A DNA stretch of 64,000 nt from a virus. The notes below the pieces were generated by a model, which had not been told where the DNA came from, searched no databases, and saw only the letters and a list, made by a program, of their open reading frames with translations. Within the stretch, counting starts at the first letter, position 1, and the number at the start of each line of letters is the position of its first letter. The stretch lies in UHGV virus genome UHGV-0214148; one strand, 5' to 3'. Position numbers and translations under genes: made by a program. Below, piece after piece: positions 10,890-54,007 of the stretch.

Positions 10890-10908
10890 AAAAGTAGGAG
10901 TCTTTACG

Positions 10909-13900
10909 ATGCCGAGAGAAGACGCGGCGCAGTTTAACGGTACGCTAAGCACAGCGACGTACCCTAACCGATTTAACGTGGTCATTCCGCCTGAAGGACC
11001 TTTTTATCGTATCGGATTAAAACTCACAGTAGCCGACGATACCGCGCCTAACGGACGTCGTACTCTGATTGAGGGGCTGGACTACTATTTAGGCTATTAC
11101 TTTAAAGAACTCGCCGAAGCTGAACAAGATCAGATTTATGGCGGGTTTATGTTGCTTACTGCAACAGAAATCGAATATGAGATTTTAGGGGTAGCACGGC
11201 AGTATCGTGTACCGCAATCTGAAATCGGGAAGTTCTTAGTTCGTACTGACCTGAAAGACCCACGTAACGTGGACTGGTCGGAGTTAATGGCGTACGCGCC
11301 GGTTATTCAACCAATCGACCCCCCTGCTAACTTAGAAGAAGCTATTCTGAGGGACGAGGTCGTTAAAGCGTTGAACGATATCCGCAAGAAAATCATTCAG
11401 CGTTCAACAGAGTTAGATGCGGCCTTCACCGAAGTCACTAACCTTATTTACGAGAACGGTAAAAAGATTTTCGATGAAGAACTATACCAACACCACCTTA
11501 ATCCTAACGCTCACCAGTATACGACCAATGACGTTGGGGCCCTTCCGGTTTTAGGACGTGCTGTTGACGCTACAAAAGCGTTTGGGTTGACAATTGACCA
11601 ACTGGCTACGCTGATGGGTTCGGCGGGCATTGAGCAATCAGACGTTGAACAGCTAATGGGTGAAGCCCTCGGTACCGTTTACGGTCGTTGGGGCACCACG
11701 AACGGTAACGAACTAACGTTTAAAACACCGGGTGGACACATCATCAGCATCCGTGGTGATAAGTGGTTAATTACCTCCCCGCAACCGTTAGTGATTAAAG
11801 CAGACCAAGACAACAACGAATCCGGTTTGGCGGTTGAGTTTAGTGCGGGACTGAATACGCTTTGGGTACACTCTGGGTCAGAACAGGATGTATTAGCACC
11901 GGTCTATAACTCTGTGTATCTCGTTACACCAGAAATGGTGAACATGTACCTGACGTCTGTAACGTTACTTGAAGCGAATGCCTATTTCAAACCGTCAGAC
12001 ACCGTAAAACCGTACGGTACAGCGAAGCAGTCTAACCCACTAACGTTGAACGCGAATATTCCCACAGCAACCGAGTCGGTTTATGGGGTGTTTTCGATTA
12101 CGAATATCGCAACCTCTGTAGCGCTAGGCACTGCTATTTCCCAAAAGGCTGTGACCGAGTTAAAAAACCGGTTGGACTTGTACGTTGACGACGACTACAC
12201 GGTTAACGGTAGAGGGTTTGTTAAGACAGGCGACAACATGGTGTTAACCTTAACGAAGGCCGATTTCGGTATCGATAAGATGAATAACACCACACCCATC
12301 GCTAAACCGGTAACAAAAGCATTAGCGAACGTGCTGAAAAATAAAAGTTTGAAGGTACACACGCACACTACCGCTGATTTGGATAATGTCCCGATTGGTA
12401 GCGCAACAGTGGACGGTATCTTACAGCTGTGGGATGCGATTGATACCACGAATGATAAAGCCGTCACATCACGCCAAGGGTGGCTGTTCGCAAAAGAGAT
12501 TAAGAAGGTCTCTGATAAACTGAATACCCTCTTGCCCGCATGGACAACGGCCGGGAGCAAATATACCAACAATTCGATATTGCCGATCTTGTCGATGGGT
12601 AATTACGAAGGTTATGGTAAAAACATGGATGCGCTCCAGATGGTTATAGGGGTACAACAAGGTAAGCTTTATGCTTTAATTAGCTCTAAATCCGCCCTTC
12701 CGGGAACCGAGGGTATTTATTACGCCGTTGCCGGGTTAAAAAACGACAAAAGTCTTGGTGAAATTTACAAAACAACGTTCCGTTATAAGCCGAAAGGGTT
12801 AGAGACGAATTATCCTGGGGTGGAACTAAAAGAAATTACCGTTACGGGTACCGAAGCATTTATAGCGAAAGGCAGCGACGATAATTACTATTTAGTTAAA
12901 CTGAACGGTTCAATGGATTACACCAAACATACCGATGTCAGGTTGGTAACTTTCTCAGAATTTGTTTCAGAAACAACATGGGAATTTGTGCCGAATATGT
13001 TCATGGATCGTGTGGTCATAGCCGATAACGGCGTCTATGTTTTGCGTACGATGCTAATGGCCGATCTGAAAAACAATAGTCTGGTGGACTACATTAAGGA
13101 TACTCCGCAACCTATGTTCCGTGTTGGGTTATTGCGACTTAATAAAACCGATCGGTTTGAACAGGTTGATTTAAGCTCTACACGAAAAATCGGTAAGTGT
13201 GCCGATTTGGTTGAACCTGGCGCGTTCGATGTAGATAATCCGAATACGAAGCGTCTTGCCTACTTCACTGCGGAAGGCAAAGCGTTGTGGACAGTGAATT
13301 TACAATTAACTAGAGGGGTGTCAAGATGGATAACGCCCGTTGTTAAGGACGGTAATCTGTTAACCGTCGGCGTGTCTGGCGTTTGTCTTGGTTTTTCTTC
13401 AACGAAAGGTACCACATTCGGGCCATGGAATGGTGCTTATCGTCTCGACCTATTAACCGGGGAGGTTGGGTTAGAGACAACTAACATCTTCCCAATCAAA
13501 ATCGATACTACAGGTTGCTACTTAAAAGACGGAACAAAAATAGAGCTGAAATGGAAATGGGCTACTCGAAGTTCTGGCTATATGGCCGACAATAGAATCT
13601 GTGTCGGTGATATGGTTTATTCTTGCTGCTGTTCGACAGAAAAACAACTTGCACCGTCTCTCCATTACCAGAAACTCCCAGAAGGAGTTAGTTATCTGGA
13701 CTATGTTAAGTTGAGTGCGGGGTATGAGGGGCAATCTACGTTTGAAAATCGGATAAACCCTGTGGTGGGTTCGGTGTGGAAACCGTCTATGACTCTACCA
13801 TTGTTCTTCCCAGGAACAAACAAAGTATGGCTTAAACATCAAAAAACGGCTTATTTCATTGAAGCCGAATATGATAAAGATACGACTTATGGTTATCCTG

Positions 13901-19474: not shown

Positions 19475-20398
19475 ATGACAACCAATGCAGAACCAAGGTT
19501 ATCGAATCGTTTATACGATAAACCCACCGTATTGTCCGTAGTCGCTACGTCCAAGTGCAACCTGGATTGTAGCTTCTGCGGTGGAGCCTATTACATGAAT
19601 CGTGAAGATTCTCCGCGAGAGTTTCAACGTGAGCGAATTTTGGAAGCGCTGGAAGCTAATCCAACCATTACCGAAATTCAGTGGACGGGTGGTGAGCCAT
19701 TACTGGCAACCCGTAAAATTGAGGCGTTTGTTGACGAATTAAAAGTGATTCGTCCAGAACTCAAACACCAGTTGTATACCAATGGCTTAAAGATGCGTAA
19801 ATCGCATCTCCCGTTGCTAAAACAGTTTGACAATGTCTACGTTAGCATCGATGGGTTTAAGTCGTCTGAGCGCCCGTTTATGCGCTTTATTGACGAAGGC
19901 TGTTACGAAGCACTGGAAACGATCTACGAGCTGGATAATGTCCAGACTTGGGGTGTCCTGACACGGGACCGTTTAGGGGACAAACGCTGGCACGAAGATA
20001 TTATTCAGCTGCACAGCGCGATTTACCATTACGGTTTCCGTGCAATGACGTTACTCTTAGATGCGAAAATGCCAAAACCTTTATCGCCCGACCACGTCAT
20101 GAACTTTATTTACGGCTACTATCAGGTTCAGGATAACATTGAACGACTGAATGTAGTAAATAGTCGTGAATGCGGCTTTACGGTAAGTAAAGTGTTTGAA
20201 GAAGGGTGTAACGTTTGCAGCGAAAGTCTTTGGATTAATGCAGACGGTGGTGAGCACCAACTCCAGAATGCACCTAACGTTCTGGAATCGGGATGTAACC
20301 AACTGGCCTTCTCTATCGGTGTAGAGGCGTACGAATATATTCGTCGCGTAGTGATGGCAGGGCGTAATAGAGGGGCGGCAAATGAGTCAAGTAAATGA
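19475..20398 (+). CDS. radical SAM enzyme (307 aa)
   Basis: N-terminal CNLDCSFC (CxxxCxxC) cluster and TGGEPLL SAM-binding motif; extra C-terminal cysteines (CNVC...C). Confidence 0.8.
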   Translation: MTTNAEPRLSNRLYDKPTVLSVVATSKCNLDCSFCGGAYYMNREDSPREFQRERILEALEANPTITEIQWTGGEPLLATRKIEAFVDELKVIRPELKHQLYTNGLKMRKSHLPLLKQFDNVYVSIDGFKSSERPFMRFIDEGCYEALETIYELDNVQTWGVLTRDRLGDKRWHEDIIQLHSAIYHYGFRAMTLLLDAKMPKPLSPDHVMNFIYGYYQVQDNIERLNVVNSRECGFTVSKVFEEGCNVCSESLWINADGGEHQLQNAPNVLESGCNQLAFSIGVEAYEYIRRVVMAGRNRGAANESSK

Positions 20399-21704
20399 AT
20401 TCCCTAAGCAGTTAACGTATCAGATCGTAACCAACCTTTCGTGTAACCTGGACTGCGAATATTGTTACGAACGTAAGTACCCGCGTAACAACAAAGCGGC
20501 GGATATTGTTGATTTCTTACACGCCTGTTTTGAACGTGATAAAAACGAACCGAATGTTGAAGTTATTATCGACATTATCGGTGGTGAGCCGTTCATGCAG
20601 CCTAAACTGCTGCTGGCTGCGTTTGAAACCGCTGAGCAGTTGTGTAAAGAACACAACCGACCGTTTATGTTTAGTATCTCCACGAACGGAACGCTGTTAG
20701 ATCGTCCGTTGAACCGTGAGATTGTAGAACGTTGGAAAGACAAACTTTCGGTTGGGGTTTCGATTGACGGCTTACCTGAGTCCCATGACCGTTATCGTAT
20801 CTTCACAACAACACGCCAGGGTTCTTACGAAGCCGCAGTACGTGGCTATAACTACTTAAAAGAGGTTGGCATTGCAGAGCTCGGCGTAAAAGCAACCTTT
20901 ACGTTAGAAACGCTGCCGTTCTATGCTGCGGGGATGAAGTCATTAATTGACATTACTGGCGGTGGGACAATTTCTGGAAACGTAACTTTCGAAGACGTTA
21001 TGCCACGTAGCATGGCGACGTCAATCGCTTTACAGATGATGGATGTGATAGATTACTGGGTTGAGAAAGGATTACACACCAACCCACGTAATATCTTATC
21101 GCACATCATTCCAGAAGGGTTGGATTTCGATACGATTTGGGAACCGAACTGGCGTGACCAGTTACTGTATAATGACACCGTACGGTTGAACCCAGAACGT
21201 TTACGTCCGTTCTGTGGGACGTTAACGCACATGACGTGCTTAGGGTTTGACCGTAAGATCTTTGGCTGTAACCGCTTTATGTCAACGGTAACGTCGCGTT
21301 CTGCGGTGTTTGAGTTGGTAGGTCGGGAATTCGTCAGTCTGGACAACGGTAAATTGTTAGAAGAGATTCAAACGCAATATACCAACTACCCAGAGACCTG
21401 TTTAGGTTGTCCGATGAAACACGCTTGTGGTAGCTGCGCGGCTGCTTCTTACGAGAACGGGGAAGGAACGTTAGAAGACCGTAAAGCGTATCACGCTGAA
21501 CGACGTCAGTGCGGCTGGACGACAGCGAAACTGATGGTGGCGGAATACTGGAAACAGAAGATGGGTACGACGTCAGCAAAAGCGTTCCATGACACGAGCA
21601 TGTGTTATTGCCCACGCTGTGTTCGTGAACGTGCCCAAAAGGAAAAATTATTAAGAGAAGCCAAAGATGAAACCAATTCTGATCAACAATATTACGAAGC
21701 GTAG
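20382..21704 (+). CDS. radical SAM enzyme with SPASM-type C-terminal domain (440 aa)
   Basis: N-terminal CNLDCEYC and GGEPF motifs; C-terminal CLGCPMKHACGSC plus further Cys pairs; start overlaps the upstream gene by 17 nt. Confidence 0.8.
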   Translation: MSQVNEFPKQLTYQIVTNLSCNLDCEYCYERKYPRNNKAADIVDFLHACFERDKNEPNVEVIIDIIGGEPFMQPKLLLAAFETAEQLCKEHNRPFMFSISTNGTLLDRPLNREIVERWKDKLSVGVSIDGLPESHDRYRIFTTTRQGSYEAAVRGYNYLKEVGIAELGVKATFTLETLPFYAAGMKSLIDITGGGTISGNVTFEDVMPRSMATSIALQMMDVIDYWVEKGLHTNPRNILSHIIPEGLDFDTIWEPNWRDQLLYNDTVRLNPERLRPFCGTLTHMTCLGFDRKIFGCNRFMSTVTSRSAVFELVGREFVSLDNGKLLEEIQTQYTNYPETCLGCPMKHACGSCAAASYENGEGTLEDRKAYHAERRQCGWTTAKLMVAEYWKQKMGTTSAKAFHDTSMCYCPRCVRERAQKEKLLREAKDETNSDQQYYEA

Positions 21705-23535: not shown

Positions 23536-23544
23536 CCCCCCCCC
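23536..23544. repeat. C9/G9 homopolymeric tract inside a GC hairpin
   Basis: Nine consecutive C on the plus strand in the intergenic region about 50 nt upstream of the 23484 start. Confidence 0.6.
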
Positions 23545-33510: not shown

Positions 33511-33519
33511 GGGGGGGGG
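33511..33519. repeat. G9/C9 homopolymeric tract, intergenic
   Basis: Nine consecutive G on the plus strand between the stop at 33534 and the start at 33484. Confidence 0.6.
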
Positions 33520-35752: not shown

Positions 35753-35765
35753 AAAAAATATAAAA

Positions 35766-35796
35766 ACCGTAGGATGGACTAAGTCCATCCTACGGT
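35766..35796 (-). terminator. intrinsic terminator
   Basis: 14-bp perfect stem ACCGTAGGATGGAC/GTCCATCCTACGGT with a 3-nt loop. Confidence 0.65.
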
Positions 35797-35801
35797 TTAA
35801 A

Positions 35802-37922
35802 TTAAATAACTACCCAGCTTTTGCCATCGGAACCAATCTGCATTAGCGTAATACTTTCATTGGTCTCAATGGGTTTGGCAAGACCTTCCGTCCCACTCTT
35901 TGGAGTGATGAGAACGTTTGAGTTTTCCGGTTTAACGATGATCTTACCAGCCTTATTTGCCACGATCTGTATATTTCTACCCACACTATATTCTAGATCA
36001 GGAATAGTAAGTTGGCCGCCACGGTTGGTGGCTGGGAAATACACATAAGACGACACATCTTCCTCAGATAACACTATACCACCAGAATCACGATTGACCG
36101 AGATCTCAAACTTAGAAATATCGATATCGTAGGCAGTAACTTTCGTAATATCTGTCAGAACCAATTCGTTCAAATCGGTATTAGCTGGACTGTTCGCCAG
36201 ATCAAACGGAGTGCCATTCTTGCCGTCAAGCACAGGTGTGACTTTGATTTTATTGTCACCCGGATAAATGATTTCAAGCGTATGCCAGTTATTATCGTAT
36301 GCACCAAAAGTTCCTAATTGCGCATTCTGCTTTTTATGATGCATCAGATAAAGATTCGTAGCGTCGGTCTGTAAGAAAAAAGACATTAGGTACGGGTTCG
36401 TCTTAGCCACACCAGCGTCAGCAAGTGTAGTACCAGAAGGTAGGTCGGACGCGGAAATACGCCAATAAAGTCCTAATCCGAAACGATCTGCTGCTAAATC
36501 ACCTTTTAGTCTAAAAGTAACGGTCAGACGTCCACCGTAACGTATCATGTCCGCAGCAGTCGCCATTGACTTAGTTACATTCCAAGGTTTCATCGTTACA
36601 GCCTTTCTTAATTCGACGAAATGCCCGTTTCCATCCTCAGTTTTTTGCACGGTTACGTTACAATCAACGATATTGTTCCAACCTTGCCCTTTCAGGGAAC
36701 CATCTCCACGACGACCGTTATAACCAACAGACTCTACTAATGGGGTATAGCTTCTTACCACATTCATATTGTCTTTGGAGCTCTTAGTGTCGTTCTTCGT
36801 CAGGAACATTGCACCAATCGCTGTTCTTGATAATATCTCGGCAGCTATTCTCTCTGAGATAATACCGCGTCGTGCCCAAGAACTGAAATGACTATTCCTT
36901 TCTGCAGACGTCCAGTTATCAGAACTACGGGAGGCAGCACCGTAATAGGCAGCACCAGTGATATTAGGATCGTCAGTGGGATCATTAGTCGGAACATGTT
37001 GGCCATTATCGTCGTACATGAATGGAACAAAAAAGATATTTTTTTGTTCGTTGTTACGATAATTACCGTATATGGTTTCATATTGAGCAGGATATTTTTC
37101 CTTCCAATAATAGGTAGTGTCCCCACAGATCCATGGTACTTCGGCGGTGGCGTACTCGGGCATCTGAGAGAGATGGTCAGAGAGATCAGTTCGGAAACGC
37201 TCTACCATTGCGTTAAATAACGCTGGTTGTTGTGCGTATTGTACTTTAGTCAGATCATACTCTCCCTGCATCCACACTACAGCCAAGAGTTTATTTTTAG
37301 GATTAACTTCCAGGGCTTTTTTGGTCCGGCTAACTAAATCTTTATAAAGCGGTTTGTCCACCCCCCATACCGATGACGCCGCAGAGGCTCCTGTGGCTTC
37401 ATCGAAGGTACCTTCTGCACCACCCGTGAAAGCAGAACCGCCGCGTGCGCAGGGTACTAGTAAGATACCGGCGTTCTTAGGAATATACGGGAGAAGACGC
37501 TTCGCGATATGAAGACCTTGACCCACACATCCGTATTCACCTTTGTCTAAATTGGCATTGGGATGCGAGTATTTGGACATATCTTGCACGTCGTGCAGAC
37601 AGTGATCCGCTGGAATGACGTCGTTATATTTACAATCAGCCCCATTAGGCGTTACCTTCGCACGGCGCGCCATCTGTTTAATTCGCGGATCGGGAGCGTC
37701 CAACGTCGCCGGTAGAGGCAACCCTTCACCATAACTCATCGCATTAGATTGCCCGGCTATAGGAATCACGAAGTAATACTCCGGCTCCGTCGTGCCCTGA
37801 AGTTTTGCAATATCAATTTTATATTCTTTTTCTTCCTTAGAAAGAAGAACTAACGCACCTTTGAGATCGCCAGAGAAATTGTCGAGTTCATGGATACGTT
37901 TCTTTCCAATTGGCTGACTCAT
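35802..37922 (-). CDS. tailspike-like protein with sialate-O-acetylesterase (SASA/SGNH) domain (706 aa)
   Basis: GQSNAMSYG and WMQGEYD blocks typical of the SASA esterase family; N-terminal roughly 35 aa resemble the N-terminus of the 1479-aa fibre. Confidence 0.7.
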   Translation of the reverse strand: MSQPIGKKRIHELDNFSGDLKGALVLLSKEEKEYKIDIAKLQGTTEPEYYFVIPIAGQSNAMSYGEGLPLPATLDAPDPRIKQMARRAKVTPNGADCKYNDVIPADHCLHDVQDMSKYSHPNANLDKGEYGCVGQGLHIAKRLLPYIPKNAGILLVPCARGGSAFTGGAEGTFDEATGASAASSVWGVDKPLYKDLVSRTKKALEVNPKNKLLAVVWMQGEYDLTKVQYAQQPALFNAMVERFRTDLSDHLSQMPEYATAEVPWICGDTTYYWKEKYPAQYETIYGNYRNNEQKNIFFVPFMYDDNGQHVPTNDPTDDPNITGAAYYGAASRSSDNWTSAERNSHFSSWARRGIISERIAAEILSRTAIGAMFLTKNDTKSSKDNMNVVRSYTPLVESVGYNGRRGDGSLKGQGWNNIVDCNVTVQKTEDGNGHFVELRKAVTMKPWNVTKSMATAADMIRYGGRLTVTFRLKGDLAADRFGLGLYWRISASDLPSGTTLADAGVAKTNPYLMSFFLQTDATNLYLMHHKKQNAQLGTFGAYDNNWHTLEIIYPGDNKIKVTPVLDGKNGTPFDLANSPANTDLNELVLTDITKVTAYDIDISKFEISVNRDSGGIVLSEEDVSSYVYFPATNRGGQLTIPDLEYSVGRNIQIVANKAGKIIVKPENSNVLITPKSGTEGLAKPIETNESITLMQIGSDGKSWVVI

Positions 37923-37925
37923 CTA

Positions 37926-38438
37926 CTACTCTCCAAAAGTTAAGATTTTATTGTCAAACGTCAACACGACAGAATCATCACCGATGCCACACGGTGTTTC
38001 ATCTGGGCCGAAAACCACCACGGAGAACTGTCCTTTATAAGCGATGGAATTTGGAGCGATGCTAAGCGTTACCGCGTCTTTACCTACCGTGAACGACTGG
38101 TCGGTTAAATCGTCGGTTTGTAAGTTAGCACCACAAACGGCATTGACGGATTCGATAAGATCGTGTGCATTAAACCCTTCACCTATTACTTTTACCAGAA
38201 TAGGTTGTTGGTTTAACCACCGCTCTGCGGTTAAACGGTTGTAGTAGATTTGCAACGTTCTGTTTCCAGGACGTTTAATCTTTACAATGGCAGTGGAGTC
38301 ACGATCCATTTCATCACTGGTTTTTACGTCACTGACTTCAACCTCGTTCTCTTGCAAGTCAAGTTGGAGGTCATGGTTAACCAGTGAAATAACCATGTTA
38401 AGTGAAGTTAGTGATAAATCTGGTGTGAATTTTTCCAC
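37926..38438 (-). CDS. hypothetical protein, paralogue family B (170 aa)
   Basis: GTG start with TAGGAGGT SD; shares PDLSL...NHD...YY.RL...CG.NLQ..DL and C-terminal CGIGDD.VLTF blocks with 44527..45087. Confidence 0.55.
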   Translation of the reverse strand: MEKFTPDLSLTSLNMVISLVNHDLQLDLQENEVEVSDVKTSDEMDRDSTAIVKIKRPGNRTLQIYYNRLTAERWLNQQPILVKVIGEGFNAHDLIESVNAVCGANLQTDDLTDQSFTVGKDAVTLSIAPNSIAYKGQFSVVVFGPDETPCGIGDDSVVLTFDNKILTFGE

Positions 38439-38492: not shown

Positions 38493-38501
38493 CCCCCCCC
38501 C
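38493..38501. repeat. C9/G9 homopolymeric tract, intergenic
   Basis: Nine consecutive C on the plus strand about 55 nt upstream of the family-B gene start at 38438. Confidence 0.6.
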
Positions 38502-38535: not shown

Positions 38536-38979
38536 TTAGCTAATTCTCAAATCACGCAGTGCGCCTGTCGATTTCATCGCGTTTTGGAACGCGCCACTGA
38601 TGTTATTAGTCCAGTAATAATGCTGTCCGTTAATAACCTGCTGATAGGTCAGTGCGCAGGTGTTACCACCTAAATTTACGGTAATGTTAGAGGCTCTGCC
38701 TCCTTGTAAGTAAACCGCTAAAGTAGGCTTTGCGTTGGCAACTATCGTCGTTAACTGTAACTCAATACCTACTAAAGTTCCCACCCCGCAGTTACCCGCG
38801 TTTTGAATGGTTCCCTGATTTTTCTGGTTTAACGGCCAGCTTGGTCCTACCGCGCCCCATTTCTTACCTAAAGAATCGCTATATGCAGCGGTTGCAATTT
38901 TACAGCCCATAGATCTTCCCACCATTTGACTCATCATAAAAGGTCTACCCAATCCTAATTTACTACCAGCAGCGCTCAT
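38536..38979 (-). CDS. adhesin-like Gly-rich protein, paralogue family C (147 aa as an intact ORF)
   Basis: Paralogue of 39298..39843; the conserved N-terminal extension and its SD/ATG lie upstream in another frame (see 38980..39044). Confidence 0.55.
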   Translation of the reverse strand: MSAAGSKLGLGRPFMMSQMVGRSMGCKIATAAYSDSLGKKWGAVGPSWPLNQKNQGTIQNAGNCGVGTLVGIELQLTTIVANAKPTLAVYLQGGRASNITVNLGGNTCALTYQQVINGQHYYWTNNISGAFQNAMKSTGALRDLRIS

Positions 38980-39044
38980 CCATTGTTCGCCCGTTTCGTT
39001 CTTAGCCGAAGAACCGACCCACGAACCGGTTACCCCCCCCCCAT
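38980..39044 (-). other. out-of-frame N-terminal extension of the family-C gene with its own SD and ATG, interrupted at a G-tract
   Basis: AGGAG 7 nt upstream of ATG 39044..39042. As sequenced the frame reads M-G-G-G-stop; one extra G, or two fewer, gives MGGGVTGSWVGSSAKNETGEQWMSAAG, which matches the paralogue's MGVASGWVGSSAKAVTGQEWMSVAG. Confidence 0.55.
39033..39042. repeat. C10/G10 homopolymeric tract at the start codon of the family-C gene
   Basis: Ten consecutive C on the plus strand; the last C is part of the minus-strand ATG. Confidence 0.7.
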
Positions 39045-39056: not shown

Positions 39057-39287
39057 TTAAGATTTTCTACATGTTATTGAATCGAAAGCACCACGCCCAA
39101 CCCAACGCCAATTATAATGATGATCAGCTTTATAAAGTGTGTATCTGCCCTGCTTTTTTACGTCGAAAATATTGATCGTAGTCTCTTCATTACCCAGCTT
39201 AGCTGTGCCGTAACATACAGGTTCGGGTAGTTGTTGACATCCACTTACTGTAAGCAATGCGAAACCCAGTAAAACTTTTCTTAACAT
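39057..39287 (-). CDS. small lipoprotein (76 aa)
   Basis: Signal peptide with lipobox TVSGC; mature part about 58 aa; lies between the two family-C genes. Confidence 0.6.
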   Translation of the reverse strand: MLRKVLLGFALLTVSGCQQLPEPVCYGTAKLGNEETTINIFDVKKQGRYTLYKADHHYNWRWVGRGAFDSITCRKS

Positions 39288-39297: not shown

Positions 39298-39843
39298 TTA
39301 GACTACACTTATTGAAATTGTTGCACCGTTCTGATTAAATAACCAGTTGGTTGCCGTCTTAGCCTCATAGCGCCGGACGCCGTTACTGTAAGAGTACGGT
39401 AGAAAAGTAATCTTCGTTCCGTTAAACGAAAGCGTAATATTCTGATTTGGTCCATTAGTTAGGGCCATGTAGATAATACCAGTATTTTGTACTTGGCTAA
39501 GATGTGTGACGCTACAACCCAAGATCGAACCTGACACCGAACCGGCCGCATTTTGTGTTTGCACACGATTCGATACTGTAGAACCAGCACCCGTTGTTGT
39601 AGAGTTGTTCGAATACCCCCCATACGTATTTGTAATAGGAACCCACTGCGTGTTCGTAGCCTGCACCAAAACAACATAGGTTGATCGGCCTACAACGAGT
39701 TTAAGATCCTCTACGCTACGCCCGACCATCTGCGACATGTTAAATGGTGTGCTCAGTTTAAGCTTATTACCTGCCACACTCATCCACTCCTGACCGGTTA
39801 CTGCCTTTGCTGAGCTTCCAACCCAGCCGGATGCTACCCCCAT
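39298..39843 (-). CDS. adhesin-like Gly/Ser/Thr-rich protein, paralogue family C (181 aa)
   Basis: ORF length; paralogy with 38536..38979 including the N-terminal extension. Confidence 0.6.
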   Translation of the reverse strand: MGVASGWVGSSAKAVTGQEWMSVAGNKLKLSTPFNMSQMVGRSVEDLKLVVGRSTYVVLVQATNTQWVPITNTYGGYSNNSTTTGAGSTVSNRVQTQNAAGSVSGSILGCSVTHLSQVQNTGIIYMALTNGPNQNITLSFNGTKITFLPYSYSNGVRRYEAKTATNWLFNQNGATISISVV

Positions 39844-39884: not shown

Positions 39885-42800
39885 TTAATTCCCCTTGAGT
39901 TCTTTAAGCTCTTGGCGAAGAGTTTTCATGCCTTCTACTAACAACGCAATAACACCATTGTAATTTAGACGTAAACGTTTTTCGCCTGAAATGGCATCAT
40001 CATCCTCAGACACAAGCTCAGGTAACGCTTCTAGAGCGTCCTGAGCAATTAGACCTACAGAAGTCTGCCAGCCGTCGTCAGGATGCTGAATTTCGTACAA
40101 ATAACCGGTTAGTAACTCTAACCGATCCAAAGCCTTATCCAGCTTCACCAGATTACGTTTGTTACGACGGTCAGAACGAATCTGTACGTCGTTAAACGAA
40201 CCGTTACCGTTGCCAGTAACGTTATGTCCAAAGTTTACTTGGCCGTTAGAATTATTAAAAGACAACGGGCGTAATCCGTTCCAGGAACCCGCTGCGGCTT
40301 GTCCGGCGTCGGTTACTAAGAAATAGGTATTGGCACCGTCGTTACGTAAAATAAAACCGTAGGTACCGTAAGCGATTCGAAAATCAGGGTATTTAGTGGC
40401 CAATTTACCATTAACGGTTAAATCACCGCCTACAGTACCGCCCCCTGACGGTAACGCGCCCACTTCCGCAGCAGTTGGCTTGTTTCTCGTATTGTAAGCA
40501 CGACGCCAGCCTGGTGAGTATCCATCGCCGTTAAATACGTAGATAAACTCCGCATTAGTGAGTGCTCCGCCGACGCTCGTCGTTGTGGCGGTCGTTATAC
40601 GGATCGTGTAGTTGTTTGTGCTGTTGCCGTTACTAATGACTTCTATAACGGCCCCAGCTAACGGAATGACACCACAACCCGTCTCGCTGTGAGGTATGGA
40701 CGCACTGGCGGCATAAGCCCACGCACAGCGAGCAACCCACGATCTTGTGGTAAATGCGCCGTTATTTTTCAATAACGTCACTAGCTGTGCTGTAGTTATT
40801 GCACCGCCATTAGCGCCAGTTTCTAACCAACCACTAGGTGATGCCGGACAACCTATTTCGGCTGGCCCTAACGATATATTTCTAGTGCCATCAAACGCAA
40901 TACCATTGATGGTTCTTGCGGTTTGCAACTTTGTTGCCGTGGCTGCGTTTCCGGTGGTCGACTGATTCCCTGTTTGGTTTACTCCAGGTAAGTTGATGTC
41001 TTTAGTACCATCAAAAGCTACGCCACCTATATTTCGCGCAGTCTGGAGCTTAGTCGCAGTCGCAGCATTCCCCGTCGTCGATTGGTTACCGGTTTGGTTC
41101 ACACCGGGCAGACTAATGTCTTGCGAACCATCAAAGTTAATACCACCGATCTTACGTGGCGTTTGTAACTTAGTAGCGGTCGCTGCATTACCTGTCGTAT
41201 TCTGGTTACCTTGCTGGTTAACCCCCGGTAAATTGATATCCCCAGTACCGTCAAAGGTAACGCCCCCGATTCTGCGAGCAGTTTTCAGTTTCGTCGCGGT
41301 AGCAGCGTTACCAGTAGTATCTTGATTACCGGTGGTATTTACACCAGGAATACTATCACGGGCAGTATAAACTTGTGCCCAATCTGACCACGGCGCATCC
41401 GCTGTATCGCGTCGACTACGAATATAAACGGGTGCGTGCGCACCACTCGTGCCCGACCAACCGATTAACAGTTCACCTTCACCTAGCGCAGTAGAACCGC
41501 CCAAATGCAGCAAGTTACCATAAGCGGTCGGATAACCGTTATTGTAAACTTCGTACATCTGAATACCGGGTGTACCTTTGTTTGAACCGGTTAGTGCAGT
41601 AACCCGACCACGACCTACCAGGGTGTTGATATTGATGTCAGCAGAACCATCGAATCTCACACCGTTAATATTTCTGGCAGTTTGAAGTTTAGTGGCTGTC
41701 CCGGCATTACCCGTGGTGTTTTGATTACCCTGTTGGTTAACACCTGGGAGGTTAATATCAGCACTACCGTCGAAAGCGACTCCACCAATTCTACGTGCCG
41801 TCTTTAATTTCGTTGCGGTTGAAGCATTGCCTGTTAACTCGCCTGCTAACCCTTTTGCAAAGGTCTGTTTTTCTGCCCAGGTGTGTGCTGCATTCAATAC
41901 AGGCATCTGTCGTGGTGTAATCGTACGACTACCTTTCTCACCAGCGATACGTACTGCAAAGAATCGATAGTTGGCAGTAGACACCGTACTACGCCAAACC
42001 AACATACTCCGGCCTGATGTAGCGCCATCTGATGGACCAACCAGAATGCTAACTAAGTTACCGTCAATAACACCCCAATCCATTCCCGTAGGAATGTTTT
42101 TCATGGTGTTAAGCGGCGTACAGATTAACTCACCCGGTTTAAAGTCATAGGTTTGCCAGTCTAAAGGATCAACATTCGCACGTTCACCGCCGATACCTAA
42201 TACCAGCGGAAGCGAATACGATGTGAAAACCTCACGCCAATCGCTCCAAGCGTTACCCGTACGGATACGTTGGAATTTACGACCTTTAGTTTCTGTACCC
42301 GTACCGTATGTAGTATAATTCTGTTCGACCCCTGTACCGTCTAAGCGTAAGGTAACTTCACAAACGCCTAATATGGTTTCACCAGAAGAACCGGTAAGTG
42401 GACCGTTAGTTGCTTCACCAGTGACACTGAAACGTCCCGGTTTAACGAGATCGTTAAAATTGGCTTTAAAGAAAGCACCGTCAGTCTGATAACCAACCTG
42501 AATCCAATCTTCCCATTGCGGGTTTGATGAATCCCACGTTGCGGTCAAACCACGAACATACATCGTACCACGACGTGTGGTGTATCGCTGCAACCGTCCG
42601 AAAAGACCACCTTCCATTACTTCTAGTACGCCTTGCGCACCGCCACCTTCTTCAGGGTAATGTCTGCTAAAAACAGCCAGCGAACTGCTTGAGTTTCGCC
42701 AGTTACCCATATGCTCAGCGCCACCCAAACTGTTCAAGTCTATAGCGGTAGATAATGGACGTACACCAGTAGTTACCATTCTCCACGGCGACCAGGGTCC

Positions 42801-44324
42801 ATTGGCACCATTCCACTCGCCACTCAGCATACGGTTGTACACGTTACCATTACGACAGGTAAAACGCTGTGCACCACTGTAATTACCGGCTTTATACACT
42901 TCCAGATAACCGACTGCACCGTCTTCTGGGAAATGTTTTGCCATCGACGCATTGGTTGACGTCGACTTAGCCCACGTTCCTGTGTAATTGGCATCAGGAG
43001 CAAATGTGTTAATATCAGCATCTACAGGCATTTCGCCACGGAAACGTAGATAGGTGTCAGGAGACAGACCGATATTGCGAGCAAACGTTTCTTTATCTGG
43101 GATATCAGCGCCGTTAGAGTTTTTCTGTAACGCGCCATTCGCTTTATCTACAGTGGCTTTTAATCCCAAGAAATTGATGATATCCGCAGTTGACCCTTTC
43201 GCTAACAAGGATCTGGCCGTTTCTGTAAAATCCGTTAATCCGACTTTATTACTGCCAGTGAAATACATGAGTTTATTTGCCGCTGTGGTGACTGCGGCAA
43301 TGGCGGTGAGCAACGGACTGAGAGGTTGTTTCTGCGCAAGTTCCCCAGTAATCGTTGTTGCGAAGTTAGGGTCATTACCTAACGCCTCAGCTAATTCCGC
43401 TAAGGTATTTAACGTCTCGGGTGAAGAACCAACCAGTTCCGCAATCGCGTCACGCACCCAGGCCGTTGTGGAGATGCTCGTGTCGTTCGAGTCCTTCGGG
43501 GGTGTTGGGGATGACGGTTTACCCGTAAAATTCGGCGAATGTTTATTGGCTTTTAACTGTAATTCGTCATTCAGCTGTTTAACCGTGGACGGTGTGGCGG
43601 CCTCAGTCACGGATTCGCTAGTCAGTGTATCGTTAAGTTTAACGATACCTTTACCGGTCGTACTAGCGTCGATTAAGCCCTGCGCAGCGATTTTCTCCGC
43701 ACGTAAGGCAGCTGACTCCGAGCGTGTTGCTGCGCCTTCTGAACTTTCTTTATCTTTCGCGACCTGTGCAGCAATCTTCTCCACTGCGCCCTTACTGGCC
43801 TCAACTGAAGCCGCAGTATTCTCGACACCGGTAGCCGTCTGTTGGACTTGTCCGGCCTGTTGCGTAACCGTTTCTGCTTTCTTAGTTACATCAGCCGCTG
43901 CAGCCGTCACCGATTGTTCGCTTGTAGCGACAGCTTGAGCTTTCTCATTTACCGACTGTAATACAGTATCTACGGCAGTTTTCGCGGCTAAAACTTCAGC
44001 GTGTTTTTTGTTAACCTCAGCAGTTTTAGTGGCAACGGTTCCCGCTTGCTCGCTAACGGTGGAAGCTAACGTGTCAGTTTGTTGCTTCGCGGTTTCTGCT
44101 AAGTCTTTTGCTTGTGTGGCTTCTGTTGCAGACTGTTGTGATTTGGCCGCAGCCGTTTGTGCGTCAGCAACCGCGTTTCTGACGGTGTCAATATCCGCAA
44201 CAATCTCGCGGACAGGTAACTGATAATCCCTTTCGTCTTTCGAAAAAAGTAAAACGCCTTCACCGATATCCCCGGTGTATGGACGTAAATCGTGTAAACG
44301 AATTTTCTTTACCGCTTTAGCCAT
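39885..44324 (-). CDS. long tail fibre with coiled-coil shaft, tandem fibre repeats and C-terminal intramolecular chaperone domain (1479 aa)
   Basis: Ala/Gln/Thr-rich coiled coil; about six copies of a roughly 40-aa repeat (NTTGNAATATKLQTAR.IGGV.FDG..DINLPGVNQ.GNQ); C-terminal SDRRNKRNL...LTGYLYE resembles peptidase-S74 chaperone domains. Confidence 0.85.
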   Translation of the reverse strand: MAKAVKKIRLHDLRPYTGDIGEGVLLFSKDERDYQLPVREIVADIDTVRNAVADAQTAAAKSQQSATEATQAKDLAETAKQQTDTLASTVSEQAGTVATKTAEVNKKHAEVLAAKTAVDTVLQSVNEKAQAVATSEQSVTAAAADVTKKAETVTQQAGQVQQTATGVENTAASVEASKGAVEKIAAQVAKDKESSEGAATRSESAALRAEKIAAQGLIDASTTGKGIVKLNDTLTSESVTEAATPSTVKQLNDELQLKANKHSPNFTGKPSSPTPPKDSNDTSISTTAWVRDAIAELVGSSPETLNTLAELAEALGNDPNFATTITGELAQKQPLSPLLTAIAAVTTAANKLMYFTGSNKVGLTDFTETARSLLAKGSTADIINFLGLKATVDKANGALQKNSNGADIPDKETFARNIGLSPDTYLRFRGEMPVDADINTFAPDANYTGTWAKSTSTNASMAKHFPEDGAVGYLEVYKAGNYSGAQRFTCRNGNVYNRMLSGEWNGANGPWSPWRMVTTGVRPLSTAIDLNSLGGAEHMGNWRNSSSSLAVFSRHYPEEGGGAQGVLEVMEGGLFGRLQRYTTRRGTMYVRGLTATWDSSNPQWEDWIQVGYQTDGAFFKANFNDLVKPGRFSVTGEATNGPLTGSSGETILGVCEVTLRLDGTGVEQNYTTYGTGTETKGRKFQRIRTGNAWSDWREVFTSYSLPLVLGIGGERANVDPLDWQTYDFKPGELICTPLNTMKNIPTGMDWGVIDGNLVSILVGPSDGATSGRSMLVWRSTVSTANYRFFAVRIAGEKGSRTITPRQMPVLNAAHTWAEKQTFAKGLAGELTGNASTATKLKTARRIGGVAFDGSADINLPGVNQQGNQNTTGNAGTATKLQTARNINGVRFDGSADININTLVGRGRVTALTGSNKGTPGIQMYEVYNNGYPTAYGNLLHLGGSTALGEGELLIGWSGTSGAHAPVYIRSRRDTADAPWSDWAQVYTARDSIPGVNTTGNQDTTGNAATATKLKTARRIGGVTFDGTGDINLPGVNQQGNQNTTGNAATATKLQTPRKIGGINFDGSQDISLPGVNQTGNQSTTGNAATATKLQTARNIGGVAFDGTKDINLPGVNQTGNQSTTGNAATATKLQTARTINGIAFDGTRNISLGPAEIGCPASPSGWLETGANGGAITTAQLVTLLKNNGAFTTRSWVARCAWAYAASASIPHSETGCGVIPLAGAVIEVISNGNSTNNYTIRITTATTTSVGGALTNAEFIYVFNGDGYSPGWRRAYNTRNKPTAAEVGALPSGGGTVGGDLTVNGKLATKYPDFRIAYGTYGFILRNDGANTYFLVTDAGQAAAGSWNGLRPLSFNNSNGQVNFGHNVTGNGNGSFNDVQIRSDRRNKRNLVKLDKALDRLELLTGYLYEIQHPDDGWQTSVGLIAQDALEALPELVSEDDDAISGEKRLRLNYNGVIALLVEGMKTLRQELKELKGN
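40850..41340 (-). repeat. tandem roughly 120-nt coding repeats (fibre repeat units)
   Basis: Near-identical DNA units seen directly; further copies lie around 41640-41830. Confidence 0.6.
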
Positions 44325-44526
44325 GATATTTAATTCTCTATCGGGAGCTAAAAGATCTGAGGAAGTGTTTTACCCCTCAACATTTTTATAAGCGGATTAT
44401 TATACTGGTTTTAATCCATCATCTTCTAACGTGAAAGTGATGCCCAACTCCGCGCTTCATGATTTGGGATTGTTAAGTTTTGATAAAAGTTTGCTTTGAC
44501 CTCCATTACCGGTAAAACGGTCAAGT

Positions 44527-45087
44527 TCATGTAGCCGGGTTTTCTTCAGCTGTGTCGTCATCTGGAACCTCAAAGGTAAGAACGGCATCATCACCAATAC
44601 AGAAGATCGCATCATCTTCGTTTGCTAATGCTCGTTCGGTTGTATCGAATAACGTTACCATAAACGCATTCATCCACGCAGGAGAATCGTCAGCAACGTT
44701 AACAGCAATGGGTTCGTTACCTAAGGTGATATCTGCAGCACGTAAATCTTCGGGTTGTAAGTTCGTTCCGCAGAATTCATTTACAACACCTAAAATGTCA
44801 CGAAGGTTGTCTTCAGTACCGTCTAACGAAATCAAAATAGGTTCAGACGCTAACACTTCGTCCGCATCCAAACGGTCGTAATAAACAACCACAGAAGCAC
44901 CATCAGGTTTCCTGATTTTTGTAATCTCTGTCAGTGTGTTACGACGCGAAGTGGTCGGGGACGGGTTTGCCATAGTGTTGCTAATACGGATTTCGTTTAG
45001 AGACAACCGTGAACCGTTATCGTGGTTGATTAAAGCGACCACTAATTCGGCTGAGGCCAGACTTAAATCAGGTACGTAAGTAGTCAC
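44527..45087 (-). CDS. hypothetical protein, paralogue family B (186 aa)
   Basis: Start reassigned to GTG 45087 (GGGAGG 5 nt upstream); the track ATG 45153 lies upstream of terminator 45121-45144, and homology to 37926..38438 begins right after the GTG. Confidence 0.55.
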   Translation of the reverse strand: MTTYVPDLSLASAELVVALINHDNGSRLSLNEIRISNTMANPSPTTSRRNTLTEITKIRKPDGASVVVYYDRLDADEVLASEPILISLDGTEDNLRDILGVVNEFCGTNLQPEDLRAADITLGNEPIAVNVADDSPAWMNAFMVTLFDTTERALANEDDAIFCIGDDAVLTFEVPDDDTAEENPAT

Positions 45088-45120
45088 TAAAACCTCCCAG
45101 ATCAAAAAAATAAAAACACC

Positions 45121-45144
45121 TACCGCCCATAGAATCGGGCGGTA
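45121..45144 (-). terminator. intrinsic terminator
   Basis: Stem TACCGCCC/GGGCGGTA followed on the minus transcript by a U-rich run. Confidence 0.55.
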
Positions 45145-45173
45145 GACAGTCATTTTACAGCTAAAAAATCAAA

Positions 45174-45548
45174 TCAGTCCGTTAATTCTCCACACAACTC
45201 GACGTCAATACCGAACATCAATCCCACCTCTTGAAGCTTGTTCGCCAATAAGTGGCGATGACAAAACTTACCTGGCGGACAATAACACATCAAAACCAAA
45301 TCTTCGTGTCTAAGTAATGACACTAAAGTTTCGGCGTCGGTATCTAACAGTCGTTCGAGTTTGTACAAATACTTTATCGTGTACTCGCGTTCAGCAGCTG
45401 CATCCTTTGCAGAGTTTTTATACGCCATTAAGAAATCCCAGTCGGGGGCGAGTTCCTTTCGCCCCGACTTCACAGTGATATCCACTACGTGAAACCCTTT
45501 CTGCTTAGCTAACCGCCACTTAGCGAGTTGTAACGTCCAGATACGCAT
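45174..45548 (-). CDS. DUF488-like protein (124 aa)
   Basis: LMCYCPPGKFCHRHLLANKL resembles the DUF488 C.C...CHR signature (recalled from memory). Confidence 0.45.
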   Translation of the reverse strand: MRIWTLQLAKWRLAKQKGFHVVDITVKSGRKELAPDWDFLMAYKNSAKDAAAEREYTIKYLYKLERLLDTDAETLVSLLRHEDLVLMCYCPPGKFCHRHLLANKLQEVGLMFGIDVELCGELTD

Positions 45549-52213: not shown

Positions 52214-53028
52214 TAGAGCACTCCCAGTAATTCAGTCACTGTTTTCCGAGCGGCACCAGACGCACCCATATAGCGACCGACCTCAATACTGCGCCACTCA
52301 AAACCGTAATAAATTTCTCGGGTGAGTAGGGTGTCTGCATTTGACAGCACGACGCTGTTGCCACGTCCCACCTGCTGCTGTAGTAACTTGGCTAATTCAC
52401 GATGATCCGTTTGTGAGAATTCTTTACGGTGGTATTGCGCGTGTTTCGCGGTATCCGATAACGGAATATAAGGAGGATCAGCATAAATCACGGCATCTTC
52501 AGGTGTCCGTGCTAATACAGAACGAAAGTCCTCACAAACAATTTCTAGATACTCAACTTCTGCGCAACGTTTAGCCCAATCCCGAATTTCTTCTAATGGA
52601 TAATAAACGCCATTCGGGTAACGTCCAAACGGAACATTGAACCCACCACTACTGTTATAGCGACACATCCCGTTATAACCGTGACGCATTAAGTATAAAA
52701 ACATTGCAGCACGTTCAACTTCGGTCATCGTTTTACCGCTATTAAACAGTTCACGACGTTCCATATACTTTACAGTGGTATTGCCGTCTAAGAACAACGG
52801 TTGCGATGCAGCGATCAGTTCTTCAGGCTGTTCACGCGCAACACAAAGTAAGCGTATCAAATCGGGGTTAGAATCCGATAGAATATACCGGCTGTAATTC
52901 GTATTTAGGAAAACAGACCCTGCGCCCACAAACGGTTCTACAAAGGTTGAACGTTTAGGTAAGACCTTTTGTAATTCACCCAAAACGCGTGTTTTCCCAC
53001 CCATCCATTTAATTATCGGTTTCCGCAT
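52213..53028 (-). CDS. dam: DNA adenine (GATC-type) methyltransferase, Dam family
   Basis: VEPFVGAGSVFLNTNYSRYILSD, LYLMRHGYNGMCRYN..GGFNVPFGRY and DPPY motifs closely parallel E. coli Dam (recalled from memory). Confidence 0.9.
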   Translation of the reverse strand: MRKPIIKWMGGKTRVLGELQKVLPKRSTFVEPFVGAGSVFLNTNYSRYILSDSNPDLIRLLCVAREQPEELIAASQPLFLDGNTTVKYMERRELFNSGKTMTEVERAAMFLYLMRHGYNGMCRYNSSGGFNVPFGRYPNGVYYPLEEIRDWAKRCAEVEYLEIVCEDFRSVLARTPEDAVIYADPPYIPLSDTAKHAQYHRKEFSQTDHRELAKLLQQQVGRGNSVVLSNADTLLTREIYYGFEWRSIEVGRYMGASGAARKTVTELLGVL

Positions 53029-54007
53029 TATATCCGCCTTGTAACGATGACACTTCGTCGACTAACACCAATTTGACATGATTTTTCTGACGCTCCCAAC
53101 TGACGACGTTTTCGTCACGCACTAAAACAAATTCGTATTCGTAGGGGCGAAATTTAAATAATTCGACGGCCAGGTGCCTGAATGCAGGGTTGTTATTGAA
53201 ACACCCTATTTCTAATGGTGCCGCTGTTGTCGATGCAATTTGTAGAGCACGATACAATAAAGTCCGTCCGATACCACGACCCCGATGTGTCTCACTTACC
53301 GCAATGGCTTTTAATTCACACTCGTTAAGATTACGCAATTTAACTTGCACCGCGCCCACAATATCGTTGCCGTCCATCCAAACGTAGGTGTGGTGGTTGA
53401 CGTGGCGTACTAACTCCACCAACGTTTCGACTTGTGGCATGATTTGACGTGAGCGACTCACAGGGTCAGCGTTGATGTTTTCAACGACACTCGTACCCAA
53501 AAGCAACATAAGCTGTTCACGTTGTGCGGCAGTTAACTCTTTATAAAAATCGCCGGAAATGTTCTTCACGTTTGTTGGTAGAGCGATATCCAACAACGAG
53601 CGTGTACCTAAGCGATACGTAGTGTGGGTGTGTCTAAATCCTAAGTCATTAAGCTCAGCGATTTCTTCTACACCACTGGCGATTCGATTAAGGTACGTAA
53701 AACCGGTATAGTCGAGTACCAGTAGCAGGTTCAGTTTGTTCAAACAACCCGGTACAATTTCATGCATATACAAGCAGTGTAACGTTGGGTCGCCGTAAAT
53801 GTGTTTTGTGATGATAAACCCTTGGATTGTTTTTCCTTTTTGTAAAGAGAACGTATTCAGTTCACTATTGCACAACGCCTCACGAATCACAGCACCGTTA
53901 GGGCCCGATAAACATGCCTGAAGTTGAGGGTTGCGAATATCTCTACGTGCTAACCGACCTACTGTTAAATCCGTGGCGGTATGTTTTATAATCTTCATAA
54001 AAGCCAT
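53009..54007 (-). CDS. protein with C-terminal GNAT acetyltransferase domain (332 aa)
   Basis: ETHRGRGIGRTLL acetyl-CoA-binding motif in the C-terminal part. Confidence 0.55.
   Translation of the reverse strand: MAFMKIIKHTATDLTVGRLARRDIRNPQLQACLSGPNGAVIREALCNSELNTFSLQKGKTIQGFIITKHIYGDPTLHCLYMHEIVPGCLNKLNLLLVLDYTGFTYLNRIASGVEEIAELNDLGFRHTHTTYRLGTRSLLDIALPTNVKNISGDFYKELTAAQREQLMLLLGTSVVENINADPVSRSRQIMPQVETLVELVRHVNHHTYVWMDGNDIVGAVQVKLRNLNECELKAIAVSETHRGRGIGRTLLYRALQIASTTAAPLEIGCFNNNPAFRHLAVELFKFRPYEYEFVLVRDENVVSWERQKNHVKLVLVDEVSSLQGGYNAETDN

Follow-up and report, generated by a model that had tools for sequence, protein, structure and literature searches.

The 64,000 nt window analysed here, the whole of the examined stretch of virus genome UHGV-0214148, carries on its minus strand a gene (35802..37922) whose 706-aa product joins a sialate O-acetylesterase and lectin cassette of the NanS/NanS-p family, as assigned by sequence and predicted fold, to a short N-terminal peptide shared with the giant tail fibre of the same phage. 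Fusion to this peptide most likely allows the enzyme to ride on the virion tail, and, with confidence a little above even, the protein is considered a virion-displayed NanS-p-type esterase that would target O-acetylated sialoglycans of mucus more than bacterial polysaccharide. It constitutes a new arrangement of known parts, and not a new kind of system. The features of the gene are as follows.

35802..37922 (-): anchor–NanS-p fusion gene, 706 aa (anchor, esterase, lectin, gp10-like domain), with ATG start; from the open reading frame (ORF) call
37794..37922 (-): fibre-anchor motif, residues 1-43 (MSQPIGKKRIHELDNFSGDLKGALVLLSKEEKEYKIDIAKLQG); from BLASTP, tblastn and a motif hidden Markov model (HMM)
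36819..37790 (-): SGNH/SASA sialate O-acetylesterase domain, residues 45-368; from phmmer and Foldseek matches to 3PT5
36759..36818 (-): disordered interdomain linker, residues 369-388; predicted local distance difference test (pLDDT) <50
36093..36758 (-): lectin-like jelly-roll domain (DUF6645), residues 389-610; from Pfam, phmmer and Foldseek
35805..36092 (-): C-terminal beta domain with a gp10-like phage appendage fold, residues 611-706; from AlphaFold2 (AF2) and Foldseek
35764..35798 (-): strong intrinsic terminator, 16-bp stem and T run, directly 3′ of the esterase gene

The esterase and its lectin domain

The initial annotation of this ORF had reported the GQSN and W.QGE.D blocks of an SGNH/SASA esterase, and both are present, as GQSN at residues 57-60 and WMQGEYD at residues 217-223. 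Pfam searches return SASA (E 4.4e-12) and DUF6645 (E 5.8e-31), and the protein matches phrog_143 at E 2e-248. The esterase call itself is well borne out, with E. coli NanS (YjhS; 3PT5), a 9-O-acetyl-N-acetylneuraminate esterase, retrieved both by a phmmer search of PDB sequences (E 3e-122 over residues 45-364) and by Foldseek comparison of the AF2 model (E 2.1e-35, template modelling (TM) score 0.87, 58% identity); the model thus displays the SGNH fold on which that call hinged. Alignment of 52 homologues reveals G57, Q58, S59, N60, G161, W217, G220, E221 and H345 to be invariant. Ser59 of the GQSN block (codon at 37746-37748) and His345 of an SHF block (codon at 36888-36890) align with the corresponding residues of 3PT5, counterparts that are reported to form the catalytic dyad of NanS. 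NanS itself differs in being a single-domain cellular enzyme of ~326 aa with no lectin, anchor or appendage domain. Because identity to NanS reaches 58% and all conserved blocks are intact, the same chemistry, i.e. removal of O-acetyl groups from sialic acid, is to be expected. Those NanS and NanS-p enzymes that have been characterised de-O-acetylate Neu5,9Ac2 as well as sialic acids of mucin bearing one to three O-acetyl groups (PMC8065619). The generic surface polysaccharide or lipopolysaccharide proposed originally is accordingly not the first target to expect, as the characterised family members act on 9-O-acetyl sialic acid, whether free or mucin-bound, and only sialylated capsules or O-antigens would fit.

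The AF2 model (mean pLDDT 77) falls into five parts. Three are folded, namely an alpha/beta domain, a jelly roll with pLDDT >90 and a small beta domain (residues 45-368, 389-610 and 611-706, respectively), and two are disordered, the N-terminus (1-44) and the linker (369-388). The jelly roll resembles the C-terminal lectin-like domain of the phi24B NanS-p (6YP6), both by phmmer (E 5.5e-38 over residues 400-610) and by Foldseek (E 2.3e-24, TM 0.90), and is also similar to 2W68, the sialic-acid-binding lectin of V. cholerae sialidase (TM 0.73). The tailspike architecture originally envisaged finds no place in such a model: a beta-helix tailspike was rejected because the fold is alpha/beta SGNH plus jelly roll plus small beta domain, with NanS and lectins as the top structural matches. 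Nor is a coiled coil or trimerising neck apparent, the esterase beginning one or two residues past the anchor according to both model and alignment.

When modelled alone by AF2 (pLDDT 84), the C-terminal domain (residues 605-706) retrieves from the PDB by Foldseek a baseplate chain of the Klebsiella phage KP1/Lilla1 (9f4a_LS, E 8e-4), the N-terminal XD domains of CBA120 TSP4 (7rfv, E 4.6e-3), and also the Pa223 capsid spike and T4 gp10. In BFVD, 68 models match at E<=1e-3, some of them labelled 'Baseplate structural protein Gp9/Gp10' or as tail fibre proteins. This domain is common to Salmonella prophage homologues and absent from the NanS-p of Shiga toxin (Stx) phages, and a tblastn search with residues 605-706 gave no match in any deposited phage genome.

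With regard to the wider family, 1558 homologues are present in a set of 5.8 billion proteins; the 120 listed come mostly from Salmonella and E. coli, and their source names include sialate O-acetylesterase and DUF1737 or DUF6645 domain-containing protein. No DUF1737 match is found by Pfam in the 706-aa protein, residues 1-43 being the jumbo-phage anchor instead; it is also missing from many Salmonella homologues, and so is not universal in the NanS-p family. Among the closest known systems is the NanS-p of Stx phages (Z1466 of 933W; vb_24B_21/gp84 of phi24B), which has the same order of SASA/SGNH and DUF6645 domains and ~50% identity over residues 18-610 (tblastn; 347 phage records, nearly all of Stx-converting phages). 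In both, the cargo sits on a virion-binding N-terminal module, but the window protein carries the 43-aa jumbo fibre anchor in place of DUF1737 and has the additional gp10-like domain at its C-terminus. Its gene, moreover, lies in a jumbo-phage tail-fibre operon, and not downstream of stx, or between stx and the lysis genes, of a temperate lambdoid phage. By cryo-electron microscopy and proteomics phi24B gp84 is a capsid decoration protein, DUF1737 binding the capsid hexons and the protein later being processed (2026 preprint, 10.64898/2026.04.10.717836). The 706-aa protein would fit as a version that has traded this capsid-binding module for the anchor of a tail protein; its linker corresponds to that between the catalytic and lectin domains which is proteolysed in gp84.

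The anchor peptide and the fibre locus

The resemblance of the N-terminus to that of the 1479-aa fibre, noted in the initial annotation, stands (BLASTP of the two proteins: residues 1-41 of both, gapless, 29% identity, 73% positives, E 8e-9 in a single comparison), although the shared stretch extends to ~43 residues, and not ~35. A chance resemblance was rejected on the basis of this E-value, of specific tblastn hits and of a motif profile. When the 48 N-terminal residues were compared by tblastn with 50,697 phage genomes, the only matches below E 0.01 were the N-termini of a ~157-aa SPN3US-group protein (E 1e-7 to 8e-3), named 'tail fiber protein' and found in SPN3US (gp123), Asesino (gp140), SPAsTU and pEa_SNUABM_29. 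The gene for this protein always lies straight after a DUF7941 gene and before that of a ~1005-aa tail protein. From residue 1, the aligned motif reads M..x.KKxRLHEL..(F/Y).GD....(V/A).L.SK.EKEY.I....L, and its most conserved positions (KKxRxHEL..G, L.SK.EKEY) are intact in the 706-aa protein. In a six-frame translation of the window, a motif HMM recognises three places only, namely the N-termini of the esterase (76.9 bits, E 2e-22) and of the fibre (75.8 bits), and one relic. A profile search of the 5.8 billion proteins with a 45-aa anchor returned short ORFs only, not the full range of cargo, and led to the split-gene variants described below; the label 'Phi92_gp140' carried by gp123 homologues was of no help as to function, that protein being uncharacterised.

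Mass spectrometry of SPN3US classes gp123 as 'Tail', with 16-23 peptide-spectrum matches in wild type and 0 in tailless heads (supplementary table, PMC10052503). The same source lists gp124 as 'Tail' and gp122, the DUF7941 protein, as 'Non-virion' (PMC10052503). Since gp123 is classed in this way, the motif probably marks proteins physically in the tail, and the conserved attachment-type module proposed originally is indeed common to the fibre and to a protein of the tail. The further suggestion that both proteins use the same anchor is only partly sustained: the motif is shared, but as paralogous copies (the two anchors are 28% identical), each following its own DUF7941 paralogue. The gp123 proteins contain the same 43-aa motif at 40-51% identity and in the same place after DUF7941; in these, it heads a small protein that presumably adapts a separate one, the 1005-aa gp124, whilst in the window it is fused directly to the enzyme and to the 1479-aa fibre. 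PDB sequence searches with DUF7941 and with gp123 returned nothing usable, and the docking site is therefore not readable from a solved baseplate. The remaining elements of the locus are listed below.

37926..38438 (-): DUF7941 paralogue b, 170 aa, the next gene upstream of that for the esterase and translationally coupled to it; Pfam DUF7941 E 1e-13, phrog_2935
39885..44324 (-): giant tail fibre, 1479 aa, anchor residues 1-43 at 44196-44324; Pfam Phage_fiber_2, Gp34_trimer, Peptidase_S74
44457..44561 (-): relic ORF of 34 codons (MTTQLKKTRLHELDRFTGNGG...; in full MTTQLKKTRLHELDRFTGNGGQSKLLSKLNNPKS), overlapping the end of DUF7941 a; anchor HMM positions 1-25, E 2e-6
44527..45087 (-): DUF7941 paralogue a, ~186 aa from GTG (the listed 208-aa ORF runs to 45153), orthologue of SPN3US gp122
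45117-45148 (-): strong terminator inside the 5′ extension of the listed DUF7941 a ORF

The esterase gene is operonic with the fibre genes. Its ATG follows a ribosome-binding site (GGAGAG) by 7 nt, with a gap of 3 nt to the stop codon of the upstream DUF7941 gene, and the terminator at 35764..35798 closes a transcription unit that starts past the one at 45117-45148. The position of the latter within the extension of the listed ORF points to the GTG at 45087 as the true start of DUF7941 a, as called in the related metagenome contig L001. Versions of the 706-aa gene with 90-95% identity and the same synteny occur on other contigs, one of them 226 kb in size. The whole-gene ratio of non-synonymous to synonymous substitutions (dN/dS) is 0.38 against the relative on the 226-kb contig, and the cargo domains show an omega of 0.31-0.42 against a 90%-identical relative, indicating purifying selection.

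The two DUF7941 proteins share 34-35% identity (E 2e-32). Paralogue a is 43-46% identical to the copies of SPN3US, Asesino, SPAsTU and SNUABM_29; b is only 31-38% identical to all others, apart from the b copies of sister phages (78%). Anchors located behind DUF7941 b, i.e. those of the esterase and of a 206-aa sister protein, are 51% alike, versus 28-40% for either with the fibre anchor. Anchor and DUF7941 sequences are thus compatible with cognate pairs, though the anchors are short; a strict rule of one DUF7941 per anchor was rejected, as sister phages have three anchor-bearing proteins and two DUF7941 genes. A structural docking site was likewise rejected for DUF7941 given that gp122 is 'Non-virion', and for the same reason an assembly factor is the more likely role.

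In SPN3US, Asesino, SPAsTU, SNUABM_29 and sister contigs, DUF7941 a is followed by the gene for a short anchor protein of the gp123 type; this gene has been deleted from the window and from L001, where the giant fibre gene comes next. By its sequence and position the relic at 44457..44561 is a scar of the lost gp123-like anchor protein and ~1000-aa tail protein, an intact gp123/gp124-type pair, as kept in the gp123-type phages, occupying the same position in sister contigs L017/L018 and SPN3US. The slot after DUF7941 b is variable: it is empty in L016, is taken up by the esterase in the window and L001-L003, and in L012-L015 holds an unrelated protein of 206 aa that also bears an anchor. This 206-aa protein (L013:8516-9136; also L012, L014 and L015) has a fold without assignment, and an 89-aa remnant of its C-terminus is located upstream of the esterase gene in L026 (5696-5965).

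At the junction itself, sister contigs L026 (224,967 bp; 6001-8126), L027:6001-6135 and L028:798-1537 have anchor and esterase joined by CAA-G9-TGA. In this G9 state a 45-aa anchor-only ORF (P0122, 8 contigs) is followed by a separate 663-aa esterase ORF in another frame, and ten G would fuse the two in frame (ELQGGGVTEPDYYF); a variant with G8 (P0123) is also found, as is a contig whose end is a run of 10 G or more. In the window (CAG GGC ACG ACG GAG; equivalent position 37780-37800) and in L001 (CAG GGC GTG ACG GAA) the tract is gone and the fusion is fixed. The junction tract may reflect phase-variable or slippage-controlled display, or else homopolymer sequencing error. The tract-length differences are seen solely between short-read metagenome assemblies and may be partly artefactual, and so constitute a lead rather than a finding.

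Megablast searches with the gene, and with 20 kb around it, gave no meaningful match among the 50,697 phage genomes, and hence no close sequenced relative. The region 2297-16095 encodes three large members of the paralogue family of SPN3US gp168-170, which the SPN3US authors consider baseplate or fibre candidates; the one compared directly (1394 aa) is 41-50% identical to proteins of SPN3US, SPAsTU, phiEaH2, Asesino and pEa_SNUABM_29. As these structural proteins are SPN3US-like and a phiKZ-type internal head protein (phiKZ_IP match) is also encoded, the window is assigned by homology to a new jumbo phage of SPN3US/phiKZ type; related metagenome contigs measure 220-226 kb. Segments of the giant fibre have 45-75% identity with the fibre proteins of P1, P2 and T6, and two Gp38_N-type adhesin genes lie 3′ of it, at 39298-39843 (-) and 38536-38979 (-). 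The first adhesin shares 69% identity with the tail-fibre adhesin of Stx phages of the phi24B type and of Shigella phage POCJ13, and is wholly different from the L001 adhesin at the same position. On account of these common fibre segments and adhesin the host is probably E. coli or Shigella, and from the likeness of both adhesin and NanS-p it would follow that the jumbo phage exchanges the two modules with temperate coliphages.

Proposed display on the virion, probable substrate and competing explanations

The esterase cassette is seemingly mobile between mounts. Homologues are collinear from ...PEYYFVIP(V/I)AGQSN onwards, with unrelated N-termini: DUF1737 (Pfam annotation), short leaders or other domains. 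In P0006, the N-terminus is a lambdoid side-fibre domain (phage_tail_N) plus a coiled coil, and the neighbouring gene is one for tail-fibre assembly. The esterase gene comes after the tail fibre and its assembly protein in Mu-like Salmonella prophages, after gpJ, a collagen-like protein and DUF4376 in lambda-like prophages, and in the lysis/terminase region in others. One Salmonella lambdoid prophage (L022:7001-13143 and L023) ends its tail module (gpJ, collagen-like, DUF4376, esterase, DUF1353) with a 684-aa homologue; ~1.9 kb away lies a cluster of three genes encoding CDtoxinA and Exo_endo_phos domains. A review table gives typhoid toxin as a Neu5,9Ac2 binder; the nearness of the cluster to the esterase may or may not matter.

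In the window, an esterase–lectin–gp10-like cassette common with E. coli and Salmonella prophages would have been joined to the ~43-residue peptide exactly where the esterase core begins (TEPEYYF). The enzyme would be made from the late fibre operon and docked by its peptide on the tail or baseplate, probably helped by DUF7941 b as a dedicated assembly factor, and would sit beside the giant fibre, whose own copy of this peptide is diverged. Sialoglycans could then be bound on the particle by the lectin domain, whilst the esterase strips 7/8/9-O-acetyl groups from sialic acid. The likeliest substrates are the O-acetylated sialic acids of intestinal mucus, which might allow bind-and-release movement or retention in mucus; a sialylated host capsule or O-antigen is less likely. 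Mucus is favoured because the cassette occurs in phages of hosts with many unrelated serotypes and surface chemistries, because it is paired with a lectin of the sialic-acid type, and because a scan of large window proteins revealed neither a sialidase nor an endosialidase.

Phages of the SPN3US group are known as virulent, so that a role in lysogen fitness fits poorly here, which points to a function on the particle. NanS-p was for a decade read as just such a 'moron' of Stx prophages, and PMC8065619 leaves open whether it serves the phage itself. Its fusion to tail modules in a jumbo phage, as well as in prophages, argues that the primary role of the enzyme is on the particle, and in the former the role of NanS-p could be tested without the confounding effect of lysogeny.

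Several observations weigh against display on the tail. Whilst the domain identities, the conservation of the anchor, the synteny and the variability of the slot are established, we infer the presence of the 706-aa protein in the virion tail from sequence, and its enzymatic activity, substrate and target from homology. The anchor residues have a pLDDT of ~30 and are unstructured alone, and the omega for the anchor only is 1.35, on ~five substitutions and hence too few to interpret. A globular enzyme directly follows the anchor with neither coiled coil nor trimerisation neck, unlike the fibre. The commonest assembled state of the sister phages (G9, 8 contigs) has anchor and esterase in two separate ORFs, which may often leave the enzyme without an anchor. 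SPN3US gp122, in addition to being 'Non-virion' (PMC10052503), was tentatively linked by the SPN3US authors to a head-protein paralogue family. Finally, the catalytic part of the phi24B protein is cleaved off its capsid-bound domain, such that display can be transient (10.64898/2026.04.10.717836).

Of the alternatives, the best placed, albeit unlikely, is in line with the initial annotation, namely a bacterium-aimed receptor-binding or receptor-modifying tail protein, which would de-O-acetylate a sialic-acid capsule or O-antigen (e.g. E. coli K1 OAc+, K92, O104/K9, O24 or O56) so that the fibre and gp38-like adhesins reach the outer membrane. There is established precedent for SGNH/SASA deacetylases that are carried on the tail and act on polysaccharide of the host, in E. 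coli phage G7C (gp63.1), Acinetobacter phage Aristophanes (gp41) and Pectobacterium phage Possum, each with the esterase mounted on the adsorption apparatus through an N-terminal module, and the possibility has been raised for NanS-p in review (PMC8065619). The gene also lies in the fibre operon with an anchor of the same type as that of the fibre, its slot varies among sister phages as host-range cassettes do, and the probable host is one in which some capsules bear O-acetyl sialic acid (review table). Set against this, the catalytic domain is 58% identical to a sialic-acid enzyme, and sialylated surfaces are rare in E. coli and Salmonella; phages of many serotypes devoid of sialic acid, among them the Stx phages of O157 and those of numerous Salmonella serovars, have the same cargo, and the window proteins scanned include no endosialidase partner. 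The established deacetylases act on host O-antigen or capsule and are trimeric, whilst the present protein is a sialic-acid esterase homologue with a lectin, and its AF2 model has neither a beta-helix nor a trimeric shaft; none of the three is among the 50 Foldseek matches listed.

Rather improbable is a non-structural, soluble esterase, made late and released at lysis or shed, with the N-terminal motif as a recombination leftover. NanS-p proteins were indeed first described as soluble enzymes enabling E. coli to grow on Neu5,9Ac2 (PMC8065619), and the usual sister state of separate anchor-only and esterase ORFs, the gene relics in the slot, the uninformative dN/dS of the anchor and the proteolytic loss of the catalytic part of phi24B gp84 would all agree with this. 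Yet the fusion, in frame and exactly at the domain boundary, is conserved in at least two diverged lineages, those of the window and L001, which share 90% aa identity and both lack the poly-G tract, and the most conserved positions of the anchor are intact. As the group is known as virulent, with nothing to gain from feeding a lysogen, as the in-frame junction is precise and conserved, as the C-terminal fold is of appendage type and as the sole structurally examined family member, that of phi24B, is virion-bound, a soluble role is the less likely one.

Mounting on the head or neck, with the esterase decorating the capsid as in phi24B, is very improbable: it would suit the suspected membership of gp122 in head paralogue family B, the PHROGs category of phrog_2935 ('head and packaging'), the similarity of the C-terminal domain to the Pa223 capsid spike and the capsid location of phi24B NanS-p, but anchor-bearing gp123 and gp124 are 'Tail' and gp122 'Non-virion' in the comparison of wild-type and tailless particles (PMC10052503), and the other motif carrier of the window is a fibre of P1/P2/T6 modules with gp38-type adhesin genes downstream.

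If tail display aimed at mucus is correct, bacterial viruses would have in this protein their own counterpart of the haemagglutinin-esterases, and the idea of 'phage adherence to mucus' would be extended to an enzyme. In influenza C virus, coronaviruses and toroviruses, the haemagglutinin-esterases unite on the virion surface a lectin for sialic acid and a sialate O-acetylesterase, by which the receptor is bound and destroyed. The likeness is one of functional analogy only, as the presumed ligand here is mucus or capsule and not a cell-entry receptor; no specific homology to haemagglutinin-esterases was detected, and none is among the 50 Foldseek matches listed. A broader proposal, which is doubtful and offered tentatively, would make NanS-p a general virion-display cargo with interchangeable mounts (DUF1737 on capsid hexons, lambdoid side fibre, Mu-type tail, jumbo baseplate), acting as a phage haemagglutinin-esterase aimed at animal mucus, with poly-G tracts switching tail attachment in sister phages. 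The arrangement in the window does extend the recent phi24B capsid-display result towards interchangeable virion mounts. In addition, it delineates a short attachment peptide in SPN3US-group phages, accompanied by a DUF7941 protein as partner; being portable, this peptide could serve to present other cargo on jumbo tails.

Homopolymer tracts and other features of the window

Beyond the junction, G/C runs are in excess in the window itself, with four of 9-10 nt versus 0.1 expected (Poisson P 5e-6).

23536-23544; 33511-33519; 38493-38501; 39033-39042: G/C homopolymers, all intergenic or at gene starts

Several of the intergenic tracts pair with a downstream C-run to form hairpins ahead of T-rich sequence, and similar tracts precede the giant fibre and DUF7941 b genes in sister contigs; none is present in the corresponding loci of SPN3US, Asesino, SPAsTU and SNUABM_29. 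The tract at 39033-39042 (C10 on the plus strand, ATG+G9 on the gene strand) lies at the 5′ end of the second adhesin gene, 38536-38979 (-), and puts its start out of frame (ATG GGG GGG GGG TAA), the listed ORF starting 20 residues into Gp38_N. The L013 copy of this gene, whose tract is G8, reads in frame (MGGVASGWVGSS...), and so, judged from these reading frames, the second adhesin of the window looks like the OFF state of a phase-variable adhesin.

Hypermutable poly-G tracts are known from receptor-binding genes of Campylobacter phages. The G8/G9/G>=10 tract at the anchor–esterase junction of sister phages and the G tract at the start of the second adhesin are alike to these, and poly-G-controlled display of the esterase is thus possible in the sister phages; the difference is that variation is here seen between metagenome assemblies only, and that the window has no junction tract. 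The term for such hypermutable tracts is that used in PMC10877375.

Between the two adhesin genes lies a 76-aa ORF with a lipoprotein signal (MLRKVLLGFALLTVSGC...; 39057-39287, -), which is absent from L001. By its position this could encode a receptor-masking superinfection-exclusion lipoprotein akin to Llp of T5. Elsewhere, the window encodes two adjacent radical-SAM proteins, at 19475-20398 (+) and 20382-21704 (+), a GNAT acetyltransferase-domain protein at 53009-54007 (-), and a DUF488-N3a protein at 45174-45548 (-), the last being syntenic with SPN3US just upstream of the fibre locus.

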